Source of the DNA: Patescibacteria group bacterium
GTDB lineage: Bacteria; Patescibacteriota; Patescibacteriia; Buchananbacterales; UBA6539
Direction of reading: 5' to 3'
Length of the DNA: 64,000 nucleotides
NCBI GenBank assembly: GCA_041662625.1
Contig: JBAZSB010000001.1
Span: 246,467-310,466 of the forward strand
This document shows positions 1,261 through 20,146 of this stretch, in pieces. The notes beneath the pieces are model-generated. The model was not told the origin of the DNA, ran no database searches, and saw nothing but the letters and a program-made list of their open reading frames with translations. Both the position numbers and the translations under genes were made by a program. Within the stretch, counting starts at the first letter, position 1; each line of letters opens with the position of its first letter.

Positions 1261-4200
1261 TTATTTTTTACCAGAAAGAGTATTTGGGCTGACCAGTAAA
1301 ACGATTAAGTAGATAACCGCCAAAACTAGAATGACTGCTAGCCAGGTAATCAACCAGCATTGAGGATACCAGATTATTACGGAAACAATAGCAATTAGCG
1401 CCGGAACTAACCCGGAGTATTTGACTGATTTAGTACCATTTTTGCCCTTGAAGGCAATGATTGCTGAGGCAATTAAATCCAGAATAAGTAAGAGCCAGAT
1501 ATAATTACTGCAGTTTTGCGTTGTAGCCGCTGGGGGTGTGGTTTCATCAGTAGTTTCGCCCAGTACGGTCCCTTCTTCAGCTGGCTGTTCAGCTGGCGGA
1601 GTGGGTGGAGTTTCTGTGTCGGTTGGAGTTGTTTCTTCTTGATATTCAACTCCAGCAACATTACCACTTGGATTAGCAGGCGTTCCTTCAGCTGGTGGAG
1701 GAGGAGTTGTCTCTTCGGTTGGTGGGACTTCTTCTGTTGGCGGAATTGCCGGTGGCACTTCCTCTAAAGTGAAGGTTAATTCATCGCCATAGACTTCAGG
1801 CGAAGCGGCTGAAAGTGGCCGGAAATAATAGACTGTAGCTGGTAATAAACCGGTAATTGTAACTGAATGATTGAGAACTTTGGGATCAGTATCAGTTGTG
1901 GCAGTTGACCAGGCATAGCCATAATTTGGTGCATAGCCAATAGCGGGATGGGAAACTAAATCATAGATTACCCGACTGGTAGCTTCGCGGTTAGTCATCC
2001 AAGTTACGGTTACTGAGCCAACTTCAGCTCCTCTGGTTAATCTAATGGTATGAATAAGCAAGCTATAAGGAGTACTACCGCCACCGCCACCTCCGCCACC
2101 GCCGCTGCCACCGCAAGCACCACAGTCGGCAGGACAGGCAGAGCAGGTTTCATTGCCGTTGCAAGAGCCATCTTCACAATATGGTTCGGTTTGATTGCAG
2201 CCTTCGTCAATGTTACTGTCGCAATCATTATCAATGCCGTCGCCACAAACTTCAGTAGCGCCCGGGTTTATACCTCTATCAGAGTCATTGCAGTCGTTAC
2301 CGTTCGGGCAGTAAGCTTCATTATAGACGGAATAAGTATCTTCATCAGCATCAACACATTGGATATCATGGCATTCATTGTTTTCACAATATTGACCCGT
2401 GCTGCAATCCTCATCAGTATTACATTCCGGACCAATCGATTCAGTACATAAGCTGATAGTATAAATGTCACCACCACCCTGGCCAGCACCATCGTCCCGG
2501 ATATCGATCTTATAAGAGCCATCCCAATTAACTGTTCCCCGACCAGCTAATTTAGTGAATGAATCAAGCTGATTGATAGCAACCGTAAGAGAACTTTGGC
2601 CATTAATTAAATAATTTGAATCCTGTAATAAGCTGATTGGATAAGAAACGCCATCAATTTTTATAATATCCCACCAATCTTGCGAACAATTATCATGAGA
2701 GCCGATTGGACTATAGGTTCCGTGACTTAATGATAACTGCCCGCCAGTTACTGTTAGCCAATCGCTACCATCAACGCAGGCTTGGAATTCAATGCAATTG
2801 CCTGTCTGGTTTTGGACTAACACGCAAGCGGATGTGCAAGAATAATTTTCATTTGGTACTCCATCTTGTCCATCGCACTCTTCATTGCCATTATCTTGCG
2901 GTCCGCCGGTGCCAACACCATTGGGTGTTTGCTTAATGCCATCACCGCAGAAAGTTTGGTAATTAAAGAAGTTTATTCCACCAATTCCTTGGCCATCAGC
3001 CAAAGTGACATCCTGAGATAACGGGGTGGTATTAAGCCAGCCAGTAACTAATTCTTCATAAATCGTCCAGATACCGGCAGTCAAGGCATTAAAGCAATAT
3101 AACCCGCTATCGTTAGTTTGAGTCGAGCTTAAGGTGGTATCTTTAGACGCCCAAATTGTCCAGGCTGGGATGACTACATCATTATTATTAAATATTCCAT
3201 CTCGATCATAATCATTATATTTATAACCGCAGATACTATTGGGTTCAATATCCCCTAGCCAATCATTGCCGAAATTAACATAAACGGTTTGTTCTGGAAC
3301 AGCGGTTACATCCTGAAATAAATCAGTGATATTCTTCCAACCCGGCTGCATCTCTTCCTGAACTCGGTAATTACCTGGCGTGACATCTTCAAAGCAGTAA
3401 TTTCCACCTTCGTCAGTTACCCGGTAGTCAATAATGGTTTGGTCGGTAGCGCAATGTAAAGCTTGGACACCGTCGACATCAAAACCATCAGTCTCGGCTC
3501 CGAATATTGTGGCAAACTTATTGGAAGTGTCAGTTAACTTTAAGTATTTAGCCCAAGCCAGACTACCTAAATCAAAAGTGCTGTCTTGGCAACCTTCACC
3601 AGCTAGTTCAACCCAGCTACTACCGTCTTGAGAAGCGGAAACTTTGACTTTTTCCGGATAGCTGGCGCAGCTGGGACTGCCATATGAAGTTTCAACTACA
3701 TCAATGTCATCCCCTGCTTCATTAAGAATTAAATTATCAAAGCTTAAAACCAGTTCACCGCCAAAGCCCAAAGCAACAAATTCAACCGGATCGCTATTGG
3801 AATATTGAGCCGCTCCTAATGCTTTAGAAGGATCGGTTCGTTCAGTGATAATTGGTGTACCATTTTTTCGTGTGCCGGGATTATAGCTAACCACGCCATC
3901 GGCCCATTGTTCACCTTCAGTACAGAAAGAAAACTCGATTAAATTTATAGTCCAATTTGCCAATCCGGGTTCTTCATCACGCTGTCCGTTTTCATTCTGG
4001 TCATGCCATTTATAACCGCAAATTGAGCTTTCGCAATCCTCGTCAACATATCCGTCGCAATCATTGTCAAGCTCGTCGCCACAAAATTCTTTTTCGCCTT
4101 CAGTTGGCACGGCGGAACAAACTGCCGGACCAGCTGGATCTTGCGGGTCGCAAGCGTAAGTACCACTTTGTTGGCAAATGCCTTGGCCGGCAATACATTC

Positions 4201-7200
4201 ACTGCCGACGTTCCAGCCTTCATCAATTAAGTCATCACAGTCATTATCAACGCCATCGCAGACTTCAGTGGTACACTCCGGCGGAGTGGGAATACAGCGG
4301 ACGCTGACATTATCTAAAAATGTGCCTAAAGAATTAGAAGTACCGCCGTCAGCAAATTCCAGCAAAGTTGTATAGCCACTGGCGGTTAAATTATATTGAT
4401 AAGGTGACCAGTTCAGACTACTGCCGCCAGCACCGGTAAGCGTAGAAACTAGGTTACCATCCCAGTTAAAATTCAAGACGTTATCACTGCTGCCAGTATT
4501 TGGTCGCGGTGAAAAATTGAAACTGACTAAATAGTTATAACCGGGCCAAGTGTTTAATTCCTGAGAAATTTTCACTGAAGCCGGTTCGCCATCGCCAGAA
4601 CCATTAGGGCCGGCCCAATCGCCGTCTAATTCAACATATTGGCTGCCATCAGGAATCAAACCGGAGAATAAACCTGATCGATGTAATTCTAAAGTCGCTT
4701 CAGTTGGTCTGGTCTGGCCTGGATAAGAATCAGAAGAAACCCAATCGGTAATCCAACTGGTTAAAGATGGAAGAAATATATCCCATTTGTTGGGGTTAGT
4801 AACAATTGGGTTTTCAAAACTACGGTTAAGCACTAACTCAACATCCGGATCACAGGTTGGCGGTAAGCCACATTCGGGCGAACATTCAAACGAACCGTTT
4901 GGCCCGTCATCGCAGTCTTCATCGCCTTCTTTAATATAATTGCCGCATTCTGGGCATTCTTCGGAATAAGGAGATATGGCCACACCTTCGCTTGTAAAAT
5001 TAAAGGAGAAATGAGATTGGACTGTATGGCGTTCGGCAAAAAAGATGTCCACTACATTATGGCCAGTCAAATGTAAACTGCCGGTTTTAGTGGTTGGGGC
5101 ATGAATGCCGCCATTATCAACGACTAAAACGCCGTCTAGATAAACCCAGGCATCATCATCGGAAGTCAGAGTATAATTATAATCTCCTTCAGTCTCAACT
5201 GAAACTAAGCCGCTCCAGTGAGCACCGAAATGATATTCATGGCCATTATCGATTTCTTCGACTGCTATATCAAAAGGAAAGAAATTTTCACCAAAAGTTA
5301 TAGCATTATCAATTCTTGTAAATTTTAAATATTGTGAATCATACCAATCATCGGTATCCCAGCTACCCAGCGGATCGCCATGACCGTCATCCGGCCATTC
5401 ATTGCCAGGCAAGTTCATATCCTGGTGATCTCTTGAATAATTATAATATTGGCCATACCAGCCGCTGCCTTCAGTTAGCTCTTCACAAGTTAATTGTTCA
5501 AGGCTGCAACTGGCAGAACAACCATCACCATCAGCAATATTGCCATCATCGCAAGTTTCATCACCTTCAATTTCATTATTACTGCAAACTGGTCCGGTTG
5601 GCTGACAGGTCGGATCGTTAGCACAATCTGAATCAGCACAATCAACAAAAGTATCGCCGTCATTATCTATGGTATCAGTACAATTTTGTTCTGGTTCAAT
5701 GGTGCAATTTTCGGAACAGCCGTCGCCGTTAACAGTATTGCCGTCATCGCAGGCTTCATTGCCTTCAAGGGCATCATTACCGCAAACGCTTGGAGTCGGA
5801 CCAGTACAATCAGAATTACAATGGCCATAGACGCCGTTATATTGACTGCCATCATCACAGATTTCCCGACCATTAACTGCCCCATCACCGCAACTTTGCG
5901 TTGTTATACAACTTCCCCACTGACATTCATTGCAGGCTTTACTGCCATTATAACCAGTTTCGGTAAGACATTCATCTGGGGTTTGTTGGTCACAATTTTC
6001 TGATTGTTGATTAACAATATTATCACCGCAATATGGTACATATTCTAAAGTACAGCTTTGGGTACAAATATAATGCGGGGGTACGCCATCAAGGGTATCG
6101 CATTCTTCATCGCCGTTTTTGGTTCCATCGTTACAGCCTTCCTGGGCAACACAATTGCTCCAGTCCAGACAATCTGATTGGCAGGTTTTCTGACCGGCGT
6201 AAGCACCAACAGAACAAGTGTCAGTTTGGCCAACTTCGCAAACTTCACTGTAACCTGGGTAACCCTGATCTAAAATATTATTATTACAAATTGGTAAATA
6301 GTTACCAAAATCTTTATTGGTTAAATTCTGGCCTTCGCTCAGGGTAACACTGTATGATCCGCTTACCGGATAGGTTTGTTGGTAAGGCTGACTGCTCGGT
6401 TCAGCTCCTTCAGAGACAGTATAATTGCCCGGCAATAAACCAGAGAACTGATAACAACCATTACTGTCAGTCACTTGGTTATCCGAGGTATCGCCGCTTA
6501 AAACAATTGGCCAACCAACTAAGGTGCTGTCGCCGGTAATGCTGCTGTCTTTGGCTACATCAGAATATTTACAGCCAGAGATTGAACCATACTGACAGAT
6601 CTCTTCAGAGATTGAATTGTAAATACTTTCTAGATCAGTTTGACTGGGGGCAAAATAATAACTGCCACCAGTAGCGTTAGCAATATATTGCAGCATGGTG
6701 GTGTTAACATCGCTGCCTAAACCAATGGTAAATATTTTGTAACCTAAACCGGCGGCTTCGTCAGCTTTGGCTTTGGCGTAATTAACATCAGCTTGATTTT
6801 CACCGGAGCCACTGCCATAAGGTTTATTGGCTTTGCCGTCAGTCAAAAGAATTGCAACCTTAACCGCTTGCGGATTAGCCCGAACTGAACCTAGCTCATC
6901 GTTAGACAAATCAATACCGTCACCAATATTGGTTGCACCATTAGCCGCTAAAGCATCAACGGCGATTTGTGTTGCCGGATGATCAGTTGATAAACCTTTA
7001 TCCAAATTTGCTGTGGTAGCAAAAGAAACTAAACCAGACTGGTCGTTGAGTCCCAGCAAACTTAGAAAGGTATCGGCAGCGCTTTTAGCGGCGGCTAATT
7101 TATTTGGCGTAGGTGGTACTGCTGGCGTGTAATTATGAGGACAGCTAGCTACACCTTGATTGTTACATTCAGTCTGAGTTAATCCATTTTTGGTGTGTTT

Positions 7201-7479
7201 ATTCCAGCAACCCCATAAATCACTTTTATTTTTATAATATTCACATTTACTTTGGCTACCCGAACTACCACCTTCGTCCATACTGCCTGACCGGTCAATA
7301 ATCAATACAACGTCAAGGTCAGCATCGCACATGCTTGGCGGCAACGGCGTAGCGGAAACTGCTGTTGGTATAAAGGCGGCACCATTAACCGACCAGAGAA
7401 TGGTAACCAAAGAAACAAAAATAGAAAACATTTTGTGTTTTCTAGGCTTTGAATAAGTGGGTTTTCCCATAGTTTGCAT
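1261..7479 (-). CDS. Giant (2072 aa) secreted multidomain adhesin-like protein: vWA, Cys-rich Myxococcus-type and MopE-like repeats, SdrD-B-like, DUF642/CBM-like, PA14, poly-Gly, PAP-N-like Fn3, Pro/Thr/Glu stalk and C-terminal two-TM anchor
   Basis: N-terminal signal peptide. vWA MIDAS motif DRSGSMDEGG. PA14 motif GDYNYTLTSDDDAWVYLDG (about nt 5040-5300). SdrD-B-like SICGYKYNDYDRDG and GYKWHDQNENGQRD. MopE-like motif NPGATEVCGDGIDNDCD. Myxococcus-type repeat ...CDDGN..GDGCS..C. DUF642-like NRSFENP...QYVELDGD. Fn3 TVTWMTNREATSRVIY...TVYYFRP. C-terminus NCSNYIWLLL...YPQCWLITWL. Confidence 0.85.
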   Translation of the reverse strand: MQTMGKPTYSKPRKHKMFSIFVSLVTILWSVNGAAFIPTAVSATPLPPSMCDADLDVVLIIDRSGSMDEGGSSGSQSKCEYYKNKSDLWGCWNKHTKNGLTQTECNNQGVASCPHNYTPAVPPTPNKLAAAKSAADTFLSLLGLNDQSGLVSFATTANLDKGLSTDHPATQIAVDALAANGATNIGDGIDLSNDELGSVRANPQAVKVAILLTDGKANKPYGSGSGENQADVNYAKAKADEAAGLGYKIFTIGLGSDVNTTMLQYIANATGGSYYFAPSQTDLESIYNSISEEICQYGSISGCKYSDVAKDSSITGDSTLVGWPIVLSGDTSDNQVTDSNGCYQFSGLLPGNYTVSEGAEPSSQPYQQTYPVSGSYSVTLSEGQNLTNKDFGNYLPICNNNILDQGYPGYSEVCEVGQTDTCSVGAYAGQKTCQSDCLDWSNCVAQEGCNDGTKNGDEECDTLDGVPPHYICTQSCTLEYVPYCGDNIVNQQSENCDQQTPDECLTETGYNGSKACNECQWGSCITTQSCGDGAVNGREICDDGSQYNGVYGHCNSDCTGPTPSVCGNDALEGNEACDDGNTVNGDGCSENCTIEPEQNCTDTIDNDGDTFVDCADSDCANDPTCQPTGPVCSNNEIEGDETCDDGNIADGDGCSASCSLEQLTCEELTEGSGWYGQYYNYSRDHQDMNLPGNEWPDDGHGDPLGSWDTDDWYDSQYLKFTRIDNAITFGENFFPFDIAVEEIDNGHEYHFGAHWSGLVSVETEGDYNYTLTSDDDAWVYLDGVLVVDNGGIHAPTTKTGSLHLTGHNVVDIFFAERHTVQSHFSFNFTSEGVAISPYSEECPECGNYIKEGDEDCDDGPNGSFECSPECGLPPTCDPDVELVLNRSFENPIVTNPNKWDIFLPSLTSWITDWVSSDSYPGQTRPTEATLELHRSGLFSGLIPDGSQYVELDGDWAGPNGSGDGEPASVKISQELNTWPGYNYLVSFNFSPRPNTGSSDNVLNFNWDGNLVSTLTGAGGSSLNWSPYQYNLTASGYTTLLEFADGGTSNSLGTFLDNVSVRCIPTPPECTTEVCDGVDNDCDDLIDEGWNVGSECIAGQGICQQSGTYACDPQDPAGPAVCSAVPTEGEKEFCGDELDNDCDGYVDEDCESSICGYKWHDQNENGQRDEEPGLANWTINLIEFSFCTEGEQWADGVVSYNPGTRKNGTPIITERTDPSKALGAAQYSNSDPVEFVALGFGGELVLSFDNLILNEAGDDIDVVETSYGSPSCASYPEKVKVSASQDGSSWVELAGEGCQDSTFDLGSLAWAKYLKLTDTSNKFATIFGAETDGFDVDGVQALHCATDQTIIDYRVTDEGGNYCFEDVTPGNYRVQEEMQPGWKNITDLFQDVTAVPEQTVYVNFGNDWLGDIEPNSICGYKYNDYDRDGIFNNNDVVIPAWTIWASKDTTLSSTQTNDSGLYCFNALTAGIWTIYEELVTGWLNTTPLSQDVTLADGQGIGGINFFNYQTFCGDGIKQTPNGVGTGGPQDNGNEECDGQDGVPNENYSCTSACVLVQNQTGNCIEFQACVDGSDWLTVTGGQLSLSHGTYSPIGSHDNCSQDWWDIIKIDGVSYPISLLQDSNYLINGQSSLTVAINQLDSFTKLAGRGTVNWDGSYKIDIRDDGAGQGGGDIYTISLCTESIGPECNTDEDCSTGQYCENNECHDIQCVDADEDTYSVYNEAYCPNGNDCNDSDRGINPGATEVCGDGIDNDCDSNIDEGCNQTEPYCEDGSCNGNETCSACPADCGACGGSGGGGGGGGGSTPYSLLIHTIRLTRGAEVGSVTVTWMTNREATSRVIYDLVSHPAIGYAPNYGYAWSTATTDTDPKVLNHSVTITGLLPATVYYFRPLSAASPEVYGDELTFTLEEVPPAIPPTEEVPPTEETTPPPPAEGTPANPSGNVAGVEYQEETTPTDTETPPTPPAEQPAEEGTVLGETTDETTPPAATTQNCSNYIWLLLILDLIASAIIAFKGKNGTKSVKYSGLVPALIAIVSVIIWYPQCWLITWLAVILVLAVIYLIVLLVSPNTLSGKK

Positions 7480-7709
7480 AGGTTTTTGAGATAATTTAGG
7501 TAAAATTAGTAAAAATATATAATAAATAGCTTGTTTCTCTTTCTACCATATTTACTCATAATTTGTCAATAGAGAGTATTTTTATAGCTAAAAACTGATT
7601 AATTTGAAACAAAATTTGAAAAATTAGTTTTTAACCTGAAAAACCATTTCTCAAAAATGGCTTAAAAATAATAATGATGAATAATAGCCAAAGCTAGTAA
7701 TAATTAAAA

Positions 7710-9059
7710 TTATTTTTTACCCAAAAGAGTATTGGGGCTAGTAAAAAGAATAATTAAATAGACAACCGCTAGGACTAAAACTATTGCTAACCAAGTAACC
7801 AGCCAGCATTGAGGATACCAGATTATTACTGAAACAATAGCAATTAGCGCCGGAACTAACCCAGAGTATTTGACTAGCTTATTACCATTTTTACCTTTAA
7901 GGGCAATAATTGCCGCTGTCACTAAATTCAGAACAAGTAAAAGCCAGATGTAATTAATGCAATTTTTTGGCGTAGCGGCTGGCTCTTCTTCGGTAGTTTC
8001 GGCAAGAACTTTCCCTTCTTCTTCAGTCGGCTGCTCCTTTCCGGTAACTACTGTGGAAGTCGGCGTTATTTCTTCTTGAAAGCCAACCCCAGCTACTGTA
8101 CCAGCCGGATTGGTTGGCGCAGTTGGGTTGCCAGATATTGGCGGAGTTTCAGCCGGCGGCAGGGTTTCTTCTGCCGGTGGAACTGGTAATCCAGCTGATT
8201 CGCCTGTAGTTTTGAAAGTTAAACTGCGGCTGACCGTATCAGGCGAAGCGTGGGAAATTACGCGATAATAATAAGTTGTGCCGGGCGTTAAGCCGGTCAA
8301 AGTCACGGAATGAAAAGTAACTTTGGTTAAATCATCAATCGTTGAATGGGCATAACCGTAATTCGGTGGACTGCTGAAATCAAAAGTGTGCGCTTCATTT
8401 TCCGCGCCCCAAATCACCCGGCTGGTAGATAAATAATTAGTCTGCCAAGTGAGTGTCGCCGTAACAGTCATAACATTAATTTCCGCTTCATTGAAAATCG
8501 TCAGACCGGCTGGCACACTGCCACCACCACCGCTACCGCCACCAGCTCCTCCACCGCCGCCTTGGCCGGGCGGAGTAACGGGTGTCTGCTCGCCTTGAAA
8601 ACCGACTAAGATATCGAAATTATTCAAAATTTTATTTTTGTAATCATTGCCGGCGCTGGAATTAAAAGTCACTATTAAATCATAAGTTGTACTCGCGTTG
8701 TTTGCCAAATTGGATAAAAATGTCTCGCCTTGATTGAAAAATTCAGTTAAACTTTTATTTAGAATCGTTTGGCTCCCCTCTTTTATTTCTAAATTTAAAG
8801 CATTGCCAAAATGATTTGGGTCATTGACATTAATCGCTTCAATAGCCAAGGGCTTTGATACGCCGCTTTTGTTTTTAATTTCAATGTGAGCGGTTACTGC
8901 TTGGCCGGGCAAAAAATTCACCGCGCCAAAAAGCGGATTGGGATTAAAGATGACAACTATATTACTTTCGGTCGCTAAAACTGGGCCGGCAAACATAAAT
9001 CCGGCTATCAGGGCAATAGCGGTAATTCCGATAAATTCTAATTTTTTTATTCTAAGCAT
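7710..9059 (-). CDS. Secreted surface protein (449 aa) with signal peptide, Gly-rich linker, PAP-N-like Fn3 domain, Pro-rich stalk and the shared C-terminal two-TM anchor
   Basis: The signal peptide, GQGGGGGAGGGSGGGG linker, Fn3 segment TLTWQTNYLSTSRVIWG...TTYYYRVIS and the C-terminal 85 aa are about 85% identical to the giant protein at both protein and DNA level. Confidence 0.8.
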   Translation of the reverse strand: MLRIKKLEFIGITAIALIAGFMFAGPVLATESNIVVIFNPNPLFGAVNFLPGQAVTAHIEIKNKSGVSKPLAIEAINVNDPNHFGNALNLEIKEGSQTILNKSLTEFFNQGETFLSNLANNASTTYDLIVTFNSSAGNDYKNKILNNFDILVGFQGEQTPVTPPGQGGGGGAGGGSGGGGSVPAGLTIFNEAEINVMTVTATLTWQTNYLSTSRVIWGAENEAHTFDFSSPPNYGYAHSTIDDLTKVTFHSVTLTGLTPGTTYYYRVISHASPDTVSRSLTFKTTGESAGLPVPPAEETLPPAETPPISGNPTAPTNPAGTVAGVGFQEEITPTSTVVTGKEQPTEEEGKVLAETTEEEPAATPKNCINYIWLLLVLNLVTAAIIALKGKNGNKLVKYSGLVPALIAIVSVIIWYPQCWLVTWLAIVLVLAVVYLIILFTSPNTLLGKK

Positions 9060-9070: not shown

Positions 9071-11596
9071 TTAAGCGGCAGGAGCAGCGTCAGTCGGCGC
9101 TGGTGGCGCTGGATCAGGACCGGGAGCGGACTCTACTGGCGCGGGCGGCTCAACCGTAATCGCCGGCTCCGGCTCAAGGGCCGGATTTTGTTCGCTTAAT
9201 TCCGCCGGGGTATCCGGAATATTTTCCGTAGTATCAGCCGGCTGGTCGTTAGAATCGCCGGTTTCATTGCTAAAATTGTCTGCGGGATTATCAGCGGGCA
9301 GCTCAGGTTCAGTCACCAAACCGGTATGATCAGCTGGATCAGTAATAGTAGTTTCTTCTTCCGGCACGGTTGTTTCCAAAGGTGTATCAGTTGGTGGTTC
9401 AGCTACTGTTTCAGCCGCCTCCTGACCGGAATTATCACCAGTATTTCCCGAATCGGCCGGGATCTCAATGGCTGGCTCGGTATTACCGGTATCGGCCGGC
9501 GGATCAGTATTTTCCGGGGTAGTTGTTGCTTCATCTTGTGTTATTATAGGCGTTTCAAAAATCGATGGCTCTTCAATCGGGAACAACTCCATCCCTTCTG
9601 GCAGCAAGCCCAAAAATCTCAGCATTTCTATTTCTTCGGGCAAAAGCAAACCGTAATCAATGGGCGGACAAAAATCTTGGTCTGATTGATCCCAGGCCTG
9701 AACCATAAAGTTTTCCGGCCCATGGGCCACCACCTTAACTCTGGCTGTATGCGAAGGCGCATAATAACAACCGCCATTACCGTCATCAAAGCAAAGCGGC
9801 ACCCGGAAATCATAAGTTCCGCTATTATTGATTCCTCTCACGACATTACCCCAAGTGGCACCACTATCTTTGGAATACCAAAGGTCAATAGTTAAAGCGG
9901 AATCAGGGCCGTTAGGATTGGTTGCGGTCCAGCTTATATTATGGGTTCGGCCCACCCACCAAATTTCGCCGCCATTAGGCGATAAAACCGTAACTTGGGG
10001 CAAACCTAAATCGATGAAATCCGACGGCTGATCCGTATCAAGACCCAAAGGCACTCGGCCCAGCATATGGCCTTCTGTCACATCCGTGCAGCCAGGATCC
10101 CAAACGTTTAAATTGTAGTTTGGCCAATCTGAATCAGGCGCGCCCCAGTTCATCTGATCAATAATTTTGCCGGCGGGATTTTTTAAAATAAGCATGTCGG
10201 CGGTGTTGTTGAGGCTATTGCCGATTGGGCTACTTAAAACAATTCTGGTAACACCAGTGGGAATTTCCCAATAATTCCAGGTAGTATCTTGATTAGTAAT
10301 AATGGCAAAGCCGCCGGCGGGAATTAGAGTAGAATCTGGTAAAATATCGCAAGCGTTATTGTCGCAAATTTTCCAATTTGATAAATCAACAGAACCAGAG
10401 GCCGGATTATAAAGTTCAATCCACTCGTTGTCAGCTTCATCACCGTGGCTTGAATCCACATCATAATAAACTTTATTTATGGCCACATAACTCCAGTCAC
10501 CGGAGGAAACCGTATCAGCAATTGTTTCTTCATCGGTAAAACCTTGGCTTTCGTTGGTAAAATCCGTCTGCCAACCAAAAACAGTATATTTGAATTCGCA
10601 GGTTTTATTTTGCAGTGAAGAAGGCGCATCAGCTGGCAAGCCGATATCTAGCTGCCATTCATTGGTTAAAATTGAAAAGATGCTTGGCGTGTAAGTAAAA
10701 TCCAGTAAATTTCCCGAGTATACTAAAGTTCCGTTAAGGTAAGCATCAACATCAAGGGCTTGGCAAAAATCAGTGTCGCCTGATGTTTGTTCGATATTCA
10801 TCTGATATTGAAAATTCAAAAGGCCGATATTAATAATATCAATCCACCGCCCGACAGATTCGTCAGGTGTTATTTTTCGGGTTAGGCCGTCATCAAATTT
10901 GTTATTAATTTCATCAATGCAGCCATTGATAACCGACGGACTGAAAACGCTTAGTTGTCCGGCTAATATATTATTGGCTTCAGTCAAAACTTCGCCGGCC
11001 GTCATGTCTTCGCACGGACTGGCTGGTTCGTTGGCATAATAATTTTCCAGCGTGCTGGTGTTGACGCTAAAATTGGGATCATAAACGTCAAAGCCGAGGT
11101 TAAGCGTTAGGGCAACAACTTGGCCGGCCAAGACTCCGGCTTCGGTATCAGTCGGGTTTTCATGGTTTTGCGAAAATGGCGCCGGTGGTCCCCCGCTTGG
11201 CAAAAAATTTTCTATATCCGCGCTGGTTGCAAAATGGGCAGAATAGCCAAACCCCCCGCCGATAGTCAAACCAGTGGGAAAGGCCAGATCAAAATTAGCG
11301 TCGCGGTAAACGGCTGGGTTATCACCATGAGCAGAGGCTCCCCAACCGCCTTGGGTTTGGGTGCGAAAGCCGTCTGAGCGGGTAAAATCCAAAGAAAAAT
11401 CCAGGGTACTGGCGGTAAAATTACCATCTGAAGTTTCCAAATCGTTATAATAGGCAATGGTCTGACCAATTGCCGAAAGTCCGGTCCAATTAAGGCCAAA
11501 CAATAACAAAATCGCTACTACTTTTAATAATGGTTTTTTTACCAAATCAAAATTAGTTTGTTTTTTCTGGATTTTTCTTTTTCTTGATTTCCGCAT
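9071..11596 (-). CDS. Secreted 841-aa protein with camelysin/TasA-type (SipW-cognate) N-terminus, lamin-tail domain, BNR/Asp-box and an acidic Pro/Thr/Glu-rich C-terminal tail
   Basis: N-terminus ...LSAIGQTIAYYNDLETSDGNFTASTLDFSL matches the camelysin-type mature N-terminus. LTD motif EWIELYNPASGSVDLSNWKI. BNR motif SKDSGATWGN. The start overlaps the sipW-like ORF by 44 nt, so an alternative TTG/GTG start is possible. Confidence 0.7.
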   Translation of the reverse strand: MRKSRKRKIQKKQTNFDLVKKPLLKVVAILLLFGLNWTGLSAIGQTIAYYNDLETSDGNFTASTLDFSLDFTRSDGFRTQTQGGWGASAHGDNPAVYRDANFDLAFPTGLTIGGGFGYSAHFATSADIENFLPSGGPPAPFSQNHENPTDTEAGVLAGQVVALTLNLGFDVYDPNFSVNTSTLENYYANEPASPCEDMTAGEVLTEANNILAGQLSVFSPSVINGCIDEINNKFDDGLTRKITPDESVGRWIDIINIGLLNFQYQMNIEQTSGDTDFCQALDVDAYLNGTLVYSGNLLDFTYTPSIFSILTNEWQLDIGLPADAPSSLQNKTCEFKYTVFGWQTDFTNESQGFTDEETIADTVSSGDWSYVAINKVYYDVDSSHGDEADNEWIELYNPASGSVDLSNWKICDNNACDILPDSTLIPAGGFAIITNQDTTWNYWEIPTGVTRIVLSSPIGNSLNNTADMLILKNPAGKIIDQMNWGAPDSDWPNYNLNVWDPGCTDVTEGHMLGRVPLGLDTDQPSDFIDLGLPQVTVLSPNGGEIWWVGRTHNISWTATNPNGPDSALTIDLWYSKDSGATWGNVVRGINNSGTYDFRVPLCFDDGNGGCYYAPSHTARVKVVAHGPENFMVQAWDQSDQDFCPPIDYGLLLPEEIEMLRFLGLLPEGMELFPIEEPSIFETPIITQDEATTTPENTDPPADTGNTEPAIEIPADSGNTGDNSGQEAAETVAEPPTDTPLETTVPEEETTITDPADHTGLVTEPELPADNPADNFSNETGDSNDQPADTTENIPDTPAELSEQNPALEPEPAITVEPPAPVESAPGPDPAPPAPTDAAPAA

Positions 11597-12071
11597 AAAT
11601 TTTTCTGGCTTCGTCGAAAATTATAGCTAAGGCCGGCACGATGATTATTAGCAGGAATCCCAGCGGTTTTCTGGCAAAATCAACGGCATAACCGGCAAAG
11701 GGAACGGAAAACAGAACTTTGCCGTGAATCTCGGCTGGCGTAACCTCTCTGGTATCTGGCGCGTTATTAGCGTCGCCCTTGGTGATATAAATCGGCTTAC
11801 CTTCCTGAACGCGAATGTCATTAATCCGGTGGGTAATCGGCGTTTGGGTTTTACCGATTTTGCCGAAAGTAATGATGTCGCCGATCTGATAATTAGTTGC
11901 CGGCTTTACCATTACAATACTGCCGGTATGAATTGCCGGCTCCATTGAACCGGAAAGCACAGTCAGAACCTTGAAATTACCGGTCAGGGGCAAAATCGAA
12001 ATCACCAAAAGCAAGGCGATCGCCGCAATCAGCGCAATAAATATGTAATAAACAACTTTAAAGATTTTCAT
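11553..12071 (-). CDS. sipW: Signal peptidase I, ER/archaeal type (SipW class, S26B)
   Basis: N-terminal TM helix followed by VLSGSMEPAIHTGSIVMVKP (SGSMEP catalytic-Ser motif of Sec11/SipW-type SPases). Size 172 aa. Sits directly adjacent to camelysin/TasA-like genes, as in Bacillus tapA-sipW-tasA. Confidence 0.8.
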   Translation of the reverse strand: MKIFKVVYYIFIALIAAIALLLVISILPLTGNFKVLTVLSGSMEPAIHTGSIVMVKPATNYQIGDIITFGKIGKTQTPITHRINDIRVQEGKPIYITKGDANNAPDTREVTPAEIHGKVLFSVPFAGYAVDFARKPLGFLLIIIVPALAIIFDEARKIYAEIKKKKNPEKTN

Positions 12072-12095: not shown

Positions 12096-14111
12096 TTACC
12101 AGCCAAAATCTGGTAAATCTGGTGGCCAATCAATTGTACAAGTCGGATAATTTAGTCCCGGCATATAGCAAATACAGCCGGTTTGACCGGTATTGGGATC
12201 ACAATATCCATACGATGAACTTGTGCAAGTAGGCAGGATTGTAGGATTATGCGCACAACCAGCTATGCCGCAAATGTCGGCTGTACAGGCGTTACTGTCA
12301 TCGCAATTATTCGGACAATTTGGATTGAGGTTGCAGCTGACTACGCCGGCGCTGCAAGTACCGCTAAATGTGCATTGTAAAGAAACTAAGCTCACATGCT
12401 GGCAAATGGTTGCCGAGCAGGAATCAGCAGTACAGCTGTTATTGTCATTACAATCGGCACTGGAAGTGCAGCCGCCCGGAGGAATTAGTGGCGCAATGCA
12501 TGCTCCAATTGCGCTGCAGGTATATCCGTTGCAACCGCCGCCTAACATACAGGTTAAATTTGAGCACGATGCGCCCACATTGGGACTTGCCTCGTAAACA
12601 CAGCCCCACATGTCTCCGCCCGCGCCGATGCAAGTCGATAATAGACAGGAATTCATCGCCTGGCTAGCGCATATATTATTACTCGGCGTATGAACGCAGC
12701 TGCCATTCACGCAAGTATCAACAGTGCAAGCTACGCCATCATTATTACAATCGTTATTACTTGTACATTCAGGCGCTGGTGGCAGACAATCGGCCGCACA
12801 GGTGGCAGTCGTTTCCGAAGGCGAGCAAGTGCCATCCGGACAGACCGGGTTACAATCTAAACTATTTAGAAAACAACCATAATCAGCGCAATCGATTTGG
12901 CCATCACCTTCATTGTCTATACCGTCATGGCAGTTAGTTTCCGGGCTGCAAACGCCATCTTCATCAGTTGCGCCATCACAGTCATTATCAAATGAATCAC
13001 AAGCTTCCACACCGTTGTTTGTCGGGGTGCAATCACTGCAATTATTATCAGTACTACCGTCGCAATCATCGTCTAAGCCATTGTCACAGATTTCAGTTCC
13101 GGCTTGATTATTTTGCGTACATTGAAGCGCCCCGCCAGTACAAGTTAAAGTTCCAGCTGAACAAACACCCGATAAGCCCGTGTTGCACACGCTTCCGCCG
13201 CCTGGATTTCCTTCATCAACAACTTGGTCGCAATCATCATCTAGGCCATTACAGACTTCTGTGGTTGGCGTGCAAGTGGGCTCGCATGCTAAATCGCTGC
13301 CGTTACAATCTTCATCAATATCATTGCCGCAGATTTCGGTTGTCGGAGAGCAGCCGCCGGTAGCGTTACAAACAAATTGGGGCAAATTTCTGGCTTGAAC
13401 CGCGGTAAAGATAATATCCGCTAGTAAACTGTCAGTTTGGATTTCATTGCCGGTGGCCAAAGGCACATTCCATTTAACGCCCAAACAATGAGTAGTGCCG
13501 CCTTGCATTGGCGCGCCTAAAGATGAATCGGCAATCGGCCAGTAACCCGCCTGGACGGTCTGGTTTTGAATTACATAAGTTTCGTCTTCATCTTTGATAT
13601 TATTACAATTATGCTCACCGGCTCCGTTATCGTTCCAAATTGTGAAAAATAAATTATTTTGCAGTTCACCTTCGCCCGCGCCGCAGGTGGAGTCAACCTT
13701 GTTTTCCGGACTGTCGCAACCGTTGTCATCTTTAACTAAATTGGCAATTTCGGCGCACATCCAGGCGTCATTATTATCCACGTGCAAGCTGATAGTGTCT
13801 TCACCACTATCCCCGGGCTTAACATCCAAAAGATTAAAATAAAGTTCACCATTCAAATCTTTGGCTGACCAGGTACAGAAACATTCCTCTTGTGTCCCCT
13901 GCCAGAAATACTTTCCTGATCCGCTCGGATCTAAAATGCAAACTTTGCCGTTGTAATGGCAGGTGTTATCAATTTGTAAATTGAATTTTCCGGCTTTAAA
14001 AGTATTTCCGACTGAGCTTTCGGTGTCGGAAAAATAGGCAATGGTTCCGCCAATGGCAATGGCAGCCACAATTGCGATGACACCGAGACTGATTACGATT
14101 TTTTTCTTCAT
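12096..14111 (-). CDS. Camelysin/TasA-like domain (Peptidase M73 family) fused to a long C-terminal Cys-rich MopE-like repeat region
   Basis: MKKKIVISLGVIAIVAAIAIGGTIAYFSDTESSVGNTFKAGKFNLQID is the SipW-cognate signal plus TasA-like N-terminus. Residues ~250-671 carry repeated C..DxDCDG..DE motifs (CGNDIDEDCNG, CNGLDDDCD, CDNGLDDDCDG, CDSFDNDCDG). Confidence 0.8.
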   Translation of the reverse strand: MKKKIVISLGVIAIVAAIAIGGTIAYFSDTESSVGNTFKAGKFNLQIDNTCHYNGKVCILDPSGSGKYFWQGTQEECFCTWSAKDLNGELYFNLLDVKPGDSGEDTISLHVDNNDAWMCAEIANLVKDDNGCDSPENKVDSTCGAGEGELQNNLFFTIWNDNGAGEHNCNNIKDEDETYVIQNQTVQAGYWPIADSSLGAPMQGGTTHCLGVKWNVPLATGNEIQTDSLLADIIFTAVQARNLPQFVCNATGGCSPTTEICGNDIDEDCNGSDLACEPTCTPTTEVCNGLDDDCDQVVDEGNPGGGSVCNTGLSGVCSAGTLTCTGGALQCTQNNQAGTEICDNGLDDDCDGSTDNNCSDCTPTNNGVEACDSFDNDCDGATDEDGVCSPETNCHDGIDNEGDGQIDCADYGCFLNSLDCNPVCPDGTCSPSETTATCAADCLPPAPECTSNNDCNNDGVACTVDTCVNGSCVHTPSNNICASQAMNSCLLSTCIGAGGDMWGCVYEASPNVGASCSNLTCMLGGGCNGYTCSAIGACIAPLIPPGGCTSSADCNDNNSCTADSCSATICQHVSLVSLQCTFSGTCSAGVVSCNLNPNCPNNCDDSNACTADICGIAGCAHNPTILPTCTSSSYGYCDPNTGQTGCICYMPGLNYPTCTIDWPPDLPDFGW

Positions 14112-14296: not shown

Positions 14297-15586
14297 TTAG
14301 TAGTCTAAGTCTTGAATCGGAGGCAGAGCTACACTATCACAACTGAAGTTTTCGTTGTTTCTTTGCTGAGTGGCATACAAAACAATGTCAGCAAGCAGTT
14401 GATCTGTTTGCGCGTTGTTTTGATTACCGCTACCCGAGCATGAAATAGTTCCGTCCAAAGCAACTGTTTGAGTTCCAACACACCAGGCAATTCCCAAATT
14501 ACCAGAGCCATTTGCCAAAATCGGTAATCTGCCAATTGCTGGAAGAGTATCAAACGGCCCATTATATAGGAGTGGTGACTCTGTACCCGGTTCATATACT
14601 CCATCGCCATCATCTTCCCAAACAACTAGATTAAGGTATTGAGACAATTCTCCTGGTTCACCGGTATCTCCTGAAGCTGTTTCCGGTTCAGCTAAGCTGT
14701 TCTCTAAATTCTGCTCATTATTTACCAGCATACAAACATAAGCGTCATTGCTTTCAACATGCAGAGAAATTACATTAGTTCCCCAGTCGCCCGGTTTAAC
14801 ATCACCGAAATTCCAGAAAGTGTCGCCTAAGCCGAGATCTCTCTCACCCCAAAGCGTACAAATGCCGCCGCCTTCGAACTGGCTGGTGCAGTTAAGTTCC
14901 ATAACGCTGATATCATCCAAATATCCGCCGTAGGAATTATTGGTCCCTAAATCGGAAAACATCACTTTTGTGGCAGCATCGGTGGCAATAAAGTTATAGG
15001 TATATGCTGTCCAAACCGTATTTGAACCGCCGGCAGAAGCTGCGCCAATGGTGTCATTTACCAAAATGGTGCTGTCGCTCACGACTTTGACTATGGCGCC
15101 AATGGTGTTATCGCCAGCCGGACGATTCGGGCGGGGCGAATACCAAAAGGTCAGGCGGTACTGCTGGCCGGCAACTGTTGTTAAAGTTTGGGAAATAGCA
15201 GATGAATTATTACTGTCTAATTCCGCTAACTGGCTGCCGCCATGTGGCGCACCCGCGGCGTTGTCCTGGATTTCTAGACCCGCGCCAGATTCCACTGTCC
15301 AAGAAGTTAGGCTGGCATCAGGATAAATTGCCCAACCGCCTGATGGCACGTTTGGCGTCTCAAAGCCGCCATTTAAAATAAGATTACTGCCAGTCTCTAC
15401 ACAAATGCCCACACAATTATGGCCATTATAGGTCTGTTTGGTGTGATCGACTTTTAAGTCAATCGAACCGGCGGTAAAGGTATTACCGCTGGAAATTTCC
15501 GTGTCGCTGAAATAAGCCACGGTTGCCCCGATTGCCAAAGCGGCGACGACCGCGATGACACTCAAGCTTAGTACGATTTTCTTCAT
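14297..15586 (-). CDS. Camelysin/TasA-like protein with inserted DUF642/CBM-like beta-sandwich domain
   Basis: N-terminus MKKIVLSLSVIAVVAALAIGATVAYFSDTEISSGNTFTAGSIDLKVD. Insert contains LNGGFETPNVPSGGWAIYP...LTSWTV. The conserved TasA-like C-terminal half (ISLHVESNDAY...QTDQLLADIVLYATQQRN) is shared with the paralogues. Confidence 0.8.
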   Translation of the reverse strand: MKKIVLSLSVIAVVAALAIGATVAYFSDTEISSGNTFTAGSIDLKVDHTKQTYNGHNCVGICVETGSNLILNGGFETPNVPSGGWAIYPDASLTSWTVESGAGLEIQDNAAGAPHGGSQLAELDSNNSSAISQTLTTVAGQQYRLTFWYSPRPNRPAGDNTIGAIVKVVSDSTILVNDTIGAASAGGSNTVWTAYTYNFIATDAATKVMFSDLGTNNSYGGYLDDISVMELNCTSQFEGGGICTLWGERDLGLGDTFWNFGDVKPGDWGTNVISLHVESNDAYVCMLVNNEQNLENSLAEPETASGDTGEPGELSQYLNLVVWEDDGDGVYEPGTESPLLYNGPFDTLPAIGRLPILANGSGNLGIAWCVGTQTVALDGTISCSGSGNQNNAQTDQLLADIVLYATQQRNNENFSCDSVALPPIQDLDY

Positions 15587-15637
15587 AGTTTTTGTTGATT
15601 TATTAATTTTTAAAATAATTATTTAAAACCTTTATCG

Positions 15638-15664
15638 GTTGCCTTAGCGAGGCTAAGGCAACCT
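15638..15664 (-). terminator. Hairpin (possible terminator/attenuator) between TasA-like paralogues 3 and 2
   Basis: ggttgccttagc-gag-gctaaggcaacc perfect 12-bp stem with an A/U-rich tail on the minus strand. Shares the gccttag core with the 14143 hairpin. Confidence 0.55.
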
Positions 15665-15688
15665 AAAAGATTTCTAGTATTATCGGTT

Positions 15689-16960
15689 TTAGTTCAGTAG
15701 TAGAGTTGTGCTGGCACAACTGAAATTCTCGTTGTTTCTTTGCTGTTCTGCATAAGCGGTAAAGGAAGCAGACAGAATGTCAGTTTGGGCAATATCACCC
15801 ATACTGGAACCATCGCAAAGAATATTATTACCGCTCAAACTCTGCGTTCCGGCACACCAGGCAAAGCCAATATATTGGGTATTGGATGCCACAAGCGATA
15901 TATTACCTATTGCCGTATTGAAGGAGGCGTTTGGTCCGGTGATTACTGTTTCACCTTCGTATACGCCATTACCGTCGTCTACCCAGGCAAAAACCTTGAT
16001 AAACTGCGAAAGCTCTCCGACTACGGAATTGATATTATCACCCGCGGTAATTTCCGGATCAACAACGGTTTCTTCTACGTCAACAATGTCGCTGGTGATT
16101 AAACAAGCATAAGCGTCATTGTTGTACACGTGCAGGCTGATAAGATTCGTTCCTCGGTCACCAGGTTTGACATCGTCAAAGCTGAAGAATTTTTCATTGG
16201 TCAAATCTTTTTCGCCCCAAAGCTGACAATGAGCTTTGTAGTAGTTATCCTGGCAATTCCCGCTAATGAAGAACTTATAAATAAGTCCGCCGGGATTGTT
16301 GAACGGCGTACCGGGCGGATTTAACAAAGCCCAGTTTTTAACTTCAAAGGTGAGAACATTTGTGCCTTGCACGATATAGCTGTTGACCAATGCTCCGGGA
16401 ATATGAAGCATGTTTCCCTGCCGATAACCAAACTCCATGGTATTTTCGGCAATTAGTGTACCGTTTAGCCAAATTTTGATGCTGTTATCAGAACCGACGC
16501 CAAACCAGAGGTCAGATGAAAGAATCGGACCATACCACTCAAATGTCTTTTCAAAAGTGTAAGTGACATCCGAAGTGGTATCTTCTTGTCTGGTTGGGTC
16601 TGATTCCCAGATCCATTTAGCGCCCGCGGCTACTAAGTCGGGGTCATTTTGCGCTGTCCAGGCTGAATGGATGAAGAAAGGCGTAAGGCTGCCAACAAAC
16701 ACCGCGGGATATGGAGTAACTGAAACTCCGTTTCTTTTAACCACGATGTTGCTCGGGTTGCTTATTAAGGTGAGGTTGCAAGTATTGCAATCAACATCAT
16801 TATAAGTCTGCCGCAAGTGATCCACTTTCAAATCCATGGTGCCGGCAACTAAGATATTGCCAGCTGAAGTCTCCGTATCATTGAACAAAGCCACAGTTGC
16901 TCCAATTGCTACTGCCGCAACTATTCCGATAACACTCAAGCCGAGTATTATTCTTTTCAT
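15689..16960 (-). CDS. Camelysin/TasA-like protein with a different inserted beta-sandwich domain
   Basis: N-terminus MKRIILGLSVIGIVAAVAIGATVALFNDTETSAGNILVAGTMDLKVD. C-terminal half (ISLHVYNNDAYACL...QTDILSASFTAYAEQQRN) is paralogous to 14297..15586. Only a 27-nt gap separates it from the upstream paralogue. Confidence 0.8.
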   Translation of the reverse strand: MKRIILGLSVIGIVAAVAIGATVALFNDTETSAGNILVAGTMDLKVDHLRQTYNDVDCNTCNLTLISNPSNIVVKRNGVSVTPYPAVFVGSLTPFFIHSAWTAQNDPDLVAAGAKWIWESDPTRQEDTTSDVTYTFEKTFEWYGPILSSDLWFGVGSDNSIKIWLNGTLIAENTMEFGYRQGNMLHIPGALVNSYIVQGTNVLTFEVKNWALLNPPGTPFNNPGGLIYKFFISGNCQDNYYKAHCQLWGEKDLTNEKFFSFDDVKPGDRGTNLISLHVYNNDAYACLITSDIVDVEETVVDPEITAGDNINSVVGELSQFIKVFAWVDDGNGVYEGETVITGPNASFNTAIGNISLVASNTQYIGFAWCAGTQSLSGNNILCDGSSMGDIAQTDILSASFTAYAEQQRNNENFSCASTTLLLN

Positions 16961-16987: not shown

Positions 16988-17719
16988 TTAGGATTGGAAA
17001 GGATTTGGATTATTTCTGTACTGTTCAACTTGGAATTCCATTGTTGCACTCATGCTATCATTCTGGACTTCATTGCCAACTGTGGTTGGTAAATTCCAGG
17101 TAATCCCAAAACAGACGGTTTGATCACCTAATACAGGAGTTGGCAAGGTCCAAGTTTCACCGTTAGCATCAATGGTTCCAGCAGAAATCAATTCAACATC
17201 GCTTTCATTTAGAATGTTATCACAATTACCATCTGCAAAAACGGTAAATATGAGATTTTCTCTTAACTCACCGGACGTTAAGCCATCAGTATCTACGCTT
17301 GCTTCCGGTTCGGTAAGCGTATTGTCATTATCGGTAACATCATCAATAACTAATCTCAACCAGGCATCATTATTATTGACGTGTAAGCTTATAGTGTTTT
17401 CTCCAGAATCACCTGGCTTAAGATCGGAGAAATTAAAGAATTTCTGAACGCCTAAATCAGTTGCTGTCCAAGTGCCATCGCAAAGAGTTCCTGGTACTGG
17501 GTAAATATCAGTTCCTTGCCATACATATACCTCTTGGTCATTAAGAGCACAAACATTTCCGTTGTAATGCTGGGTACTATCAACTGTTAAATCAATTGCT
17601 CCAGCAGTAAAAGTATTACCAGCTGAAGTTTCGGTGTCGCTGAAGTAAGCAACGGTTGCGCCAATGGCAATCGCGGCCACAATGGCAATCGCGCTTACGC
17701 TAATTAGAATTTTTTTCAT
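16988..17719 (-). CDS. Camelysin/TasA-like protein, minimal 243-aa form
   Basis: MKKILISVSAIAIVAAIAIGATVAYFSDTETSAGNTFTAGAIDLTVD...ISLHVNNNDAWLRL...QNDSMSATMEFQVEQYRN. First gene of the minus-strand cluster, preceded by about 600 bp of non-coding DNA. Confidence 0.85.
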   Translation of the reverse strand: MKKILISVSAIAIVAAIAIGATVAYFSDTETSAGNTFTAGAIDLTVDSTQHYNGNVCALNDQEVYVWQGTDIYPVPGTLCDGTWTATDLGVQKFFNFSDLKPGDSGENTISLHVNNNDAWLRLVIDDVTDNDNTLTEPEASVDTDGLTSGELRENLIFTVFADGNCDNILNESDVELISAGTIDANGETWTLPTPVLGDQTVCFGITWNLPTTVGNEVQNDSMSATMEFQVEQYRNNPNPFQS

Positions 17720-19430: not shown

Positions 19431-19635
19431 TAGTTTAATTTTACCCCTTCACCTTAACAATAAACTCTAGGGGGTCATACATAAAACTATAACAAATAAT
19501 TACATTTTTTAAAACTTAATCTATTGTGGGCAAGGTGAAGGGGTTTAGCAAAAAACGGCTTTAAAAAGAAATAGCCCTATTTTTTAAAACGCTGCCTGGT
19601 TTAGGCAGCTTATTTAATCTGTTTTTACCAATTCA

Positions 19636-19890
19636 TTAAAACCCTAGGTTCATTCCTTGAAGTTTTTGGGCCATGCCTTTTTGGGCTTTAGTGATTGCTT
19701 CGTTTATACAGTCTTTGATTATTTGGTTTTGTTGTTCAGCCGGTAACTCCGGATTTATGATTACTTCTTCGACCTGGAGGTTACCATTCATTACGATTTT
19801 AAAGCCTTCTTTTTCAACAATAAATTTTTCGCTTTTCATTGAATCTTGTAAAGCTTTGAGTTGGCCGAGTTGTTTGAGTTTATCGAGCAT
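19636..19890 (-). CDS. ybaB: YbaB/EbfC family nucleoid-associated protein
   Basis: 84 aa, MLDKLKQLGQL...IVMNGNLQVEEVIINPEL... pattern. Sits downstream of dnaX, the conserved dnaX-ybaB arrangement. Confidence 0.8.
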   Translation of the reverse strand: MLDKLKQLGQLKALQDSMKSEKFIVEKEGFKIVMNGNLQVEEVIINPELPAEQQNQIIKDCINEAITKAQKGMAQKLQGMNLGF

Positions 19891-19922
19891 AAGGTTGTGA
19901 AATGATTCACCTAGTTAATTCA

Positions 19923-20085
19923 AATATCCACTTCTCGGGGACCCGCCTACGTCCCTTCGGGACTACGGCGGGCAGGCAGAATCTGGCGTCTCCCGACGTC
20001 GCCCATTGCTTTATTTTTATGGCGAGTCGGGATGCCGACCTTACGTCGGCACTACTTAGTCAACAATGTTCACTTCTCGGGGACC
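19923..20085. repeat. About 21-bp direct repeats (aat[ag]t[tc]cacttctcggggacc at 19923..19943 and 20065..20085) flanking a 121-bp insert; the right copy is the 3' end of tRNA-Gln
   Basis: Seen directly. The 3' acceptor segment of tRNA-Gln (ggtccccgagaagtg) is duplicated 142 bp away. The intervening DNA carries the 26-nt motif gaatctggcgtctcccgacgtcgcc, also present at 37598..37623. Confidence 0.6.
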
Positions 20086-20146
20086 AGGAATCGGACCTGG
20101 ATTAGCAGAGCCAGAATCTGCCGTCCTACCATTAGACGATCCCCGA
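20076..20146 (-). tRNA. tRNA-Gln (anticodon CUG)
   Basis: Manual fold of the minus-strand RNA: acceptor tcgggga/tccccga with U1-A72 and G73 discriminator (the Gln identity set), D-arm gtc/gac, anticodon arm gcaga-ttCTGgc-tctgc, T-arm ccagg-tccgatt-cctgg. CCA is not encoded. Confidence 0.7.

Follow-up and report, generated by a model that had tools for sequence, protein, structure and literature searches.

The 64,000-nucleotide stretch of Patescibacterial DNA analysed here (the window) carries on its minus strand an operon that encodes four TasA-like paralogues, a SipW-type signal peptidase and a lamin-tail-domain (LTD) protein, the latter sharing with the subunits the N-terminal strand alone. 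One of the TasA-like genes (12096..14111, minus strand) is a single unbroken reading frame of 671 amino acids in the open reading frame (ORF) list of the window and consists of a TasA-like subunit followed by a Cys-rich, acidic tail. The protein is 100% identical to NCBI entry MFA6254642.1 ('MAG: TasA family protein [Patescibacteria group bacterium]'), which lies on a 922-kb contig, and the identical 671-residue entry is present in three sources. It contains 68 cysteines, 59 of which fall within residues 246-671. A preliminary description of this DNA had likewise placed a TasA-like unit and a Cys-rich array of about 70 cysteines overall in one ORF, which the uninterrupted frame and the count bear out.

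Full-length homologues of the fused protein are found in independent metagenomes, with the gene order kept (42-57% identity; P0002, with 57% identity and 100% coverage, P0003, P0014, P0033 and P0040). They have in common with it the junction …FTAVQARN..F.C, after which the Cys-rich modules begin. The domain boundary of the fused protein lies at about 13368-13376, within the interval of 13350-13400 suspected beforehand. The preliminary description had named a frameshift or an assembly join as what would refute it, and homologues with the same fusion as a check. Because such homologues do recur in other, independent assemblies and the order of their genes is conserved, the reading of the gene as an artefact, in which a TasA-like gene and an unrelated gene for a Cys-rich protein were joined by a frameshift or a chimeric assembly, fails; the continuous ORF, the shared junction and the identical protein in three sources, on the 922-kb contig, likewise stand against it, and we regard it as extremely improbable. 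On sequence grounds, the fusion of the TasA-like domain to the Cys-rich tail is real and recurrent.

Two family models recognise the N-terminus of the protein. TIGR04088 (SipW-dependent-type signal peptide) matches residues 10-43 with 36 bits (cut-off 19), and PF12389 (Peptidase_M73) matches residues 1-50 with 26.3 bits (cut-off 22.5), which corresponds to model positions 2-50 of 196. Residues 1 to about 248 can be aligned over their full length with the 243-residue paralogue that stands alone in the cluster (52% identity), and positions 1-242 of a profile built from 74 relatives cover residues 1-249. Since both alignments run from end to end, the first 248 or so residues form a complete unit, as had been supposed for about 245, and a boundary near 13370 is correct. 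An AlphaFold (AF2) model of the N-domain, computed on the alignment of the 74 relatives, reached a predicted local distance difference test (pLDDT) score of 85 and a predicted template modelling (pTM) score of 0.76. In this predicted model, the core (residues 46-248; 13368..13976, minus strand) adopts a jelly-roll fold like that of TasA and AbpA. A Foldseek search of the PDB returned the archaeal bundling pilus subunit AbpA (7ueg_A, E 2.3e-4) first and the TasA fibre (8aur_A, E 5.5e-4) second, with probabilities of 0.99-1.0; all further matches were at least 10-fold weaker, and 8aur was matched again when the full-length model was used. Template modelling (TM) scores of the N-domain against TasA and AbpA structures are modest (0.25-0.41). 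In an hhalign comparison with mature TasA, a sequence that was checked and is identical to 8aur_A, the last strand of the family profile was aligned to TasA residues 184-207, and both have the motif N.[IY]Q..S…F.A.Q in their C-terminal strand. The core further contains 10 cysteines, 8 of them invariant across the fused subfamily.

The TasA equivalog model NF046066 (BioflmMtrxTasA) did not match the fused protein, and TIGR04090 (BsaA family) scored 23.6 bits, below its cut-off of 60. The N-domain is thus assigned to the TasA superfamily but, in view of these two results, not to the orthologues of TasA or BsaA. Database names would allow for two further functions: PF12389 is described in Pfam as 'Camelysin metallo-endopeptidase' (MEROPS M73), and the name used by JGI is 'predicted ribosomally synthesized peptide with SipW-like signal peptide'. 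The names are all that speaks for a camelysin-type protease or a ribosomally synthesised peptide precursor. The Pfam match is limited to the signal peptide and the first strand, and a metalloprotease is rejected by the missing HExxH motif. As a peptide precursor, a protein of 671 residues is far too large, and profile scans found no modification enzymes in the cluster. Both functions therefore appear very improbable.

The signal peptide comprises residues 1-25 (MKKKIVISLGVIAIVAAIAIGGTIA; 14037..14111, minus strand; TIGR04088 and PF12389), and alignment with TasA predicts cleavage after Ala25; the mature TasA chain begins with AFNDIKSK, an N-terminus that was checked against 8aur_A. Residues 26-45 (YFSDTESSVGNTFKAGKFNL; 13977..14036, minus strand) represent a candidate donor strand. 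They align with TasA residues 28-46, and the Phe positions are retained. In TasA, the mature N-terminus (residues 28-38, on to F39) enters the next subunit, with F29 and F39 as key residues (PMC9674648). The most conserved 20-residue window among the 74 relatives starts at residue 22 and has a consensus fraction of 0.90, compared with 0.44-0.62 in the core. At the same time, residues 26-45 were unplaced in both monomer models, that of the N-domain and that of the full-length protein (pLDDT 25-44). High conservation of a stretch that is nevertheless unplaced in the monomer is the pattern expected of a strand pairing between subunits, and for this reason residues 26-45 are interpreted as a putative inter-subunit strand.

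The tail (residues 246-671) is free of Lys and Arg and has 57 Asp/Glu, which gives a net charge of about -57. It was scanned as ten separate segments against PF11617, TIGR02232, NF033662 and PF00526. In its first part (residues 249-388; 12948..13367, minus strand), four MopE-type DxDCD(G) half-motifs were identified by motif position and by sub-threshold PF11617 matches. These DxDCD/NG motifs lie at residues 261-272, 287-300, 342-355 and 371-384, with a variant at residues 394-413, and one of the MopE-type units is long (about 60 residues) and followed by a CxxGxxxCxxGxxxC hairpin. PF11617 scored 20.8, 23.2, 21.2 and 23.0 bits on the individual segments, each time on model positions 13/14-30 only, and 20.2 bits on the whole protein, so that its gathering cut-off of 27 was not reached. 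TIGR02232 (Myxococcus cysteine-rich repeat) did not match the fused protein, neither as a whole nor by segment. The preliminary description had counted at least 8 C..DxDCDG..DE repeats and suggested scans with these two profiles. Neither scan sustains that count, which is wrong because four canonical motifs and one variant were found and half of the tail consists of another, CTDC-like module type. Hundreds of MopE-related (PF11617) proteins of Myxococcota match the tail and share with it C-x-[DN]-G-x-D-[DN]-D-C-D-G-x-x-DE motifs as well as the long unit with the CxxGxxxCxxGxxxC hairpin. In contrast to the fused protein, with its four sub-threshold half-motifs and a tail that is half CTDC-like, they are without a TasA-like N-domain.

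Residues 389-425 (12837..12947, minus strand) form an acidic double-disulfide module, for which the closest named counterparts are the teneurin C-rich domain (7PLP) and the thrombospondin type-3/LDL-A Ca2+ modules. NF033662 scored 28 bits on the whole protein and 36.3 bits on the isolated segment of residues 388-425 (cut-off 41, not reached). With phmmer, residues 389-425 matched the C-rich domain of teneurin-4 (7plp_A, E 0.0045), which was also the sole match in a sequence search of the PDB with the whole protein. This domain binds three Ca2+ via eight acidic residues and an Asn (PMC9058538). By the residue mapping read from the phmmer alignment, the bacterial module retains the ligand Asn together with seven of the eight acidic residues. 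It differs from teneurin in its bacterial context, in the ligand D856, which is replaced by Gly, and in having five cysteines instead of six, so that the teneurin 4-6 disulfide cannot be the same.

Because these Ca2+ ligands are kept, Ca2+ and not copper is predicted as the likely metal of the tail. Copper handling, in which the tail would bind or scavenge copper or another transition metal as MopE of Methylococcus does, is suggested by the name of the matching Pfam family, Cu-binding_MopE, and by database neighbours annotated as 'MopE-related'. The matches, however, are confined to the acidic half of the motif (DxDCDG) and stay under the cut-off, and just four His occur in the tail, of which three occupy a fixed CTDC position, while a His-rich site is absent. 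Moreover, Ca2+ is bound via Asp/Glu in the best relative of the acidic modules with a solved structure, and no copper-related genes were found between 1261 and 36207, where all but the ORFs at 34202-34699 and 19431-20304 were scanned. A copper function is therefore considered improbable.

The second part of the tail (residues 426-671; 12099..12836, minus strand) was delimited with PF00526, the hairpins of the model and the Cys/Asp columns of the orthologues, among which these columns are conserved. Dicty_CTDC-like (PF00526) modules were detected at residues ~449-476, 548-573 and 599-622 with 15.3, 29.9 and 23.0 bits, and the whole protein reached 29 bits (gathering cut-off 27). The Cys-rich stretches at residues 424-448, 481-547 and 629-671 did not match any profile, and the tail ends in the aromatic motif …DLPDFGW. 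Recent internal tandem duplication within the tail was rejected, as self-blastn gave just matches of 39-45 nt at 73-82%. The full-length model has a pTM of 0.37, and confident regions are local beta-hairpin modules (residues 280-350 and 445-650, pLDDT 70-87) joined by weak linkers; pLDDT values were 78-86 for residues 280-350 and 70-87 for the hairpins of the second part. Foldseek with the full-length model gave no interpretable matches for the tail. According to the model, the tail may be a row of small modules, each stapled by disulfides, and nothing supports the 'Cys-knot-like' stalk, a cystine knot, that had been envisaged. In all 16 homologues with Cys-rich tails that were checked (16/16), the number of cysteines is even, and their tails have 0-8 Lys/Arg versus 44-75 Asp/Glu. 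Given the even cysteine counts and the few basic residues, full disulfide pairing and a polyanionic tail are, as far as can be read from sequence, traits of the family. What stands of the original proposal is its core, a fibre subunit joined to a disulfide-rich array of metal-binding type; the number and type of repeats do not.

MopE-type and related Cys-rich repeats were also thought to recur in the giant protein encoded at 1261..7479, and this was found to be the case: the 2072-residue protein matches PF11617 with 40.4 bits and TIGR02232 with 60.9 bits and has in addition an acidic repeat. The best protein alignment between the tail and the giant, however, has 37% identity over 104 gapped residues, and DNA matches do not exceed 56 nt and lie over the DxDCDG codons. 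With these values, the exchange of modules within the locus that had been suggested is not supported, and there is no sign of a recent one. The two proteins share module types, at the level of motifs only.

The gene cluster around the fused gene was then assigned. The gene 24 bp downstream of it (11553..12071, minus strand) encodes a SipW-type (archaeal/endoplasmic reticulum-type) signal peptidase I (TIGR02228: 131.2 bits, cut-off 51.85; NF046067: 118.6 bits). The first gene of the cluster (16988..17719, minus strand) encodes the stand-alone 243-residue TasA-like paralogue (TIGR04088: 35 bits; score with the profile of relatives: 314), a candidate for the bulk or major subunit. Two further TasA-like paralogues of 423 and 429 residues (14297..16960, minus strand; genes at 14297-15586 and 15689-16960) were assigned by Pfam, NCBIfam, alignment and profile. 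Instead of a tail, both have an insertion of about 160 residues inside the jelly-roll, which in the 429-residue protein matches DUF642/choice-of-anchor C and is carbohydrate-binding-module-like. Such an insertion represents a second manner of mounting cargo on a TasA-like scaffold.

The listed start of the LTD gene (9071..11596, minus strand) overlaps sipW by 44 nt. Its 841-residue product (LTD: 56.6 bits; PF12389: 15.8 bits at residues 41-70) resembles the TasA-like subunits solely in the N-terminal strand at residues 41-70 (IGQTIAYYNDLETSDGNFTASTLDFSLD). In the related loci L001, L002, L003, L007, L017 and L018, the LTD gene is also found directly or one gene after sipW. By analogy, the LTD protein could nucleate or cap a fibre, as proposed for TapA (PMC9674648). 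The region 1261..9059 (minus strand) encodes, according to profile scans, a 449-residue FN3-like protein and the membrane-anchored giant of 2072 residues with VWA, PA14, SdrD_B, MopE and TIGR02232 matches. The 449-residue protein (7710-8650, minus strand) and the last ~300 residues of the giant (1261-2160, minus strand) are paralogues that have in common a Pur_ac_phosph_N/FN3-like domain, a linker rich in Pro, Thr and Glu, and a near-identical hydrophobic C-terminal transmembrane anchor of about 70 residues; the DNA of the two genes is 74% identical across the final ~420 nt. This suggests that the membrane-anchoring module was duplicated or copied between the two genes. A motif search of the ORFs of at least 100 residues (e.g. 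for TLxTC) detected no sortase and no thioredoxin-like oxidoreductase in the window.

The remaining window is ordinary chromosome with dnaX, L25, FtsW/RodA, BipA and two tRNAs. The minus strand at 28156-30629 encodes a divalent-metal transporter of the Nramp type and, next to it, an ORF of 404 residues, which matches just the MgtE intracellular N domain and CBS, and no MgtE membrane-domain family at E<=1e-5. The local G+C content peaks at 32001-34000 (0.515) and 44001-46000 (0.52), compared with about 0.40 around, and the first of these peaks coincides with a DegT/DnrJ-type aminotransferase gene.

A comparison of gene order revealed the same layout in five independent loci, each with at least one small TasA-like gene, at least one tailed TasA-like gene and sipW. 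Most of the related loci have an LTD protein, several have a Pur_ac_phosph_N (FN3-like) protein, and at least one encodes a giant VWA/SdrD_B/CLIPPER adhesin. A sortase is encoded beside the giant adhesin in two of them (L001, 6156-6785; L017, 18419-18997), whereas the giant of the window has a transmembrane anchor at its end. When species genomes were scanned with the N-domain, 14 loci were obtained, nearly all labelled Patescibacteria. Two close homologues with 36-44% identity, P0183 and L008, are labelled 'Candidatus Heimdallarchaeaceae archaeon' and 'uncultured Gammaproteobacteria bacterium'; these archaeal and gammaproteobacterial labels may stem from mis-binned Patescibacterial contigs or from gene transfer. 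An exhaustive profile search returned 6,543 cluster representatives, 1,234 of them at E<=1e-30, and among the matches listed the N-domain is located at the N-terminus. Sampling of 258 members in which the domain is complete gave 84 that are tail-less and 153 with tails of more than 100 residues, 33 of these 153 tails being Cys-rich. Other tails of the family contain VWA with SpaA_2, PKD, DUF4215, LTD or Notch/LNR, which are typical adhesin or stalk modules. Because its relatives carry VWA+SpaA, PKD, LTD, Notch/LNR and other Cys-rich parts, the N-domain could serve generally to mount binding modules on a fibre. In the published literature, no account was found of tailed SipW/TasA subunits or of a conserved cluster in bacteria of the Candidate Phyla Radiation (CPR). 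PF12389 matches in Patescibacteria are already mentioned in one sentence (PMC9245690). What is already known is thus this occurrence of PF12389 and the NCBI label 'TasA family'; for the tailed subunits and the cluster, no description was found.

The system shares several features with TasA of B. subtilis (PF12389; 5OF1 monomer, 8AUR fibre), namely the SipW-type signal peptide with an adjacent sipW, the jelly-roll fold, an N-terminal strand that aligns with the TasA donor strand, and an operon partner, the LTD protein, that shares the N-terminal strand only, as TapA does. In contrast to TasA, structure-based identity being ~13% and NF046066 not being matched, the core domain has 10 cysteines, there are four paralogous subunits instead of one, the genes are ordered as subunits, then sipW, then the TapA-like gene, and the 420-residue Cys-rich acidic tail is absent from TasA. 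AbpA (7UEG), the best Foldseek match of the N-domain, belongs with AbpX and the CanX cannulae to chaperone-free donor-strand filaments, the genes of which often adjoin signal peptidase I or TasA-like genes; cannula assembly is described as Ca2+-dependent (PMC12518558). These archaeal subunits differ from the fused protein in having a single domain without Cys-rich cargo, and TM-scores to them are just 0.25-0.31.

Taken together, we favour, with a probability of roughly 0.55, the interpretation that the fused protein is a donor-strand fibre subunit of the TasA superfamily that displays a Ca2+-stabilised adhesin or stalk. The SipW-type signal peptide would direct export, and the peptidase encoded by the next gene would cut it off, probably after Ala25. 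The exposed conserved strand (residues 26-45) would then complete the jelly-roll of the subunit next to it, in the manner of TasA and AbpA fibres, and since this is proposed for the N-terminal strand, the fused subunit may co-polymerise with the three paralogues of the operon, with the 243-residue protein as the bulk. The C-terminal 420 residues would stay outside the polymer as a chain of small modules, stabilised by Ca2+ and about 29 disulfides, and would extend from the fibre to form an acidic stalk or adhesin that resists proteases. For an episymbiotic Patescibacterium, the likely use would be attachment to a host cell or surface. The tailed design probably places an adhesive stalk on a cell-surface fibre.

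Several observations weigh against this interpretation. The similarity to the TasA fold is modest (TM 0.39-0.41, 13% identity), the Pfam match spans just 50 of 196 model positions, and the 74-sequence profile of the N-domain retrieved none of the PDB sequences at E<=10. The hhalign match between the family profile and mature TasA is weak (E 0.045), and because it comprises 24 columns at the last strand, homology beyond the two ends is unproven by sequence alone. The tail modules lie under the curated cut-offs of MopE, NF033662 and TIGR02232, and the model of the tail is of low confidence at residues 251-278 and 360-443. No disulfide-forming enzyme was detected by a CxxC motif search of window ORFs of at least 100 residues and by Pfam scans of about 20 ORFs. 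Fibre formation, cleavage, disulfides, Ca2+ binding and adhesion are all predictions for this Patescibacterial family, whereas the analysis establishes which domains are present, the operon and the repeated occurrence of the architecture. In TasA, residues 239-261 at the C-terminus form an inter-subunit contact (PMC9674648). Because of this contact, a bulky tail at the same end may restrict the position of the subunit and could, by analogy, hinder assembly or confine it to the end of the fibre.

The latter points would also fit a secreted or surface protein that does not polymerise. Its jelly-roll would serve as a domain for SipW-dependent export and folding or as a one-off cap or anchor at a fibre end, and its tail would be a soluble or wall-associated polyanionic protein that binds Ca2+ or other cations or is adhesive. 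The end that bears the large C-terminal cargo is the one engaged in the inter-subunit contact in TasA, the bulky tails of many family members suit tip or minor subunits or monomers, polymerisation is a prediction for this family, and the pTM of 0.37 of the full-length model is uninformative on assembly. A monomer, however, would hardly explain the conserved, unplaced N-terminal strand or an operon of several paralogues with a tail-less 243-residue subunit, and the characterised relatives with the same fold and signal peptide (TasA, AbpA, AbpX and CanX) all form donor-strand filaments. We therefore consider a non-polymerising protein unlikely, albeit the most serious competitor of the fibre subunit.

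A fibre subunit with a displayed tail would follow the logic of two-domain pilus adhesins. In FimH of chaperone-usher pili and in the VWA tip pilins RrgA and SpaC of sortase pili, one domain is inserted in the fibre and a second one binds the target. Relatives of the N-domain carry VWA+SpaA-type modules like those of the sortase-pilus tip adhesins. The polymerisation domain is non-homologous, though, and is N-terminal here with C-terminal cargo; moreover, the cluster has no chaperone-usher genes, and a sortase is located beside the cluster in two related loci and not here. For the family as a whole, a tentative extension, which we hold as a possibility well short of even odds, is that such clusters build heteropolymeric, chaperone-free donor-strand fibres. 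The N-domain would act as an N-terminal handle with swappable modules, the LTD protein as nucleator or cap and the giants as parts of the apparatus, and the modules would set attachment to hosts or surfaces.

Little is known of how the ultra-small CPR bacteria attach to host cells, and type IV pili have, to our knowledge, been the main focus so far. The locus described here points to a second, widespread Patescibacterial surface system. If the proposed function is true, the TasA superfamily would comprise, beyond matrix fibres of single-domain subunits, modular filaments that bear adhesins, and the tailed subunits would provide concrete candidates for determinants of host specificity in CPR bacteria. 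The Lys/Arg-free, polyanionic tail, stabilised by predicted disulfides and putatively by Ca2+, would in addition represent an unusual protein material.

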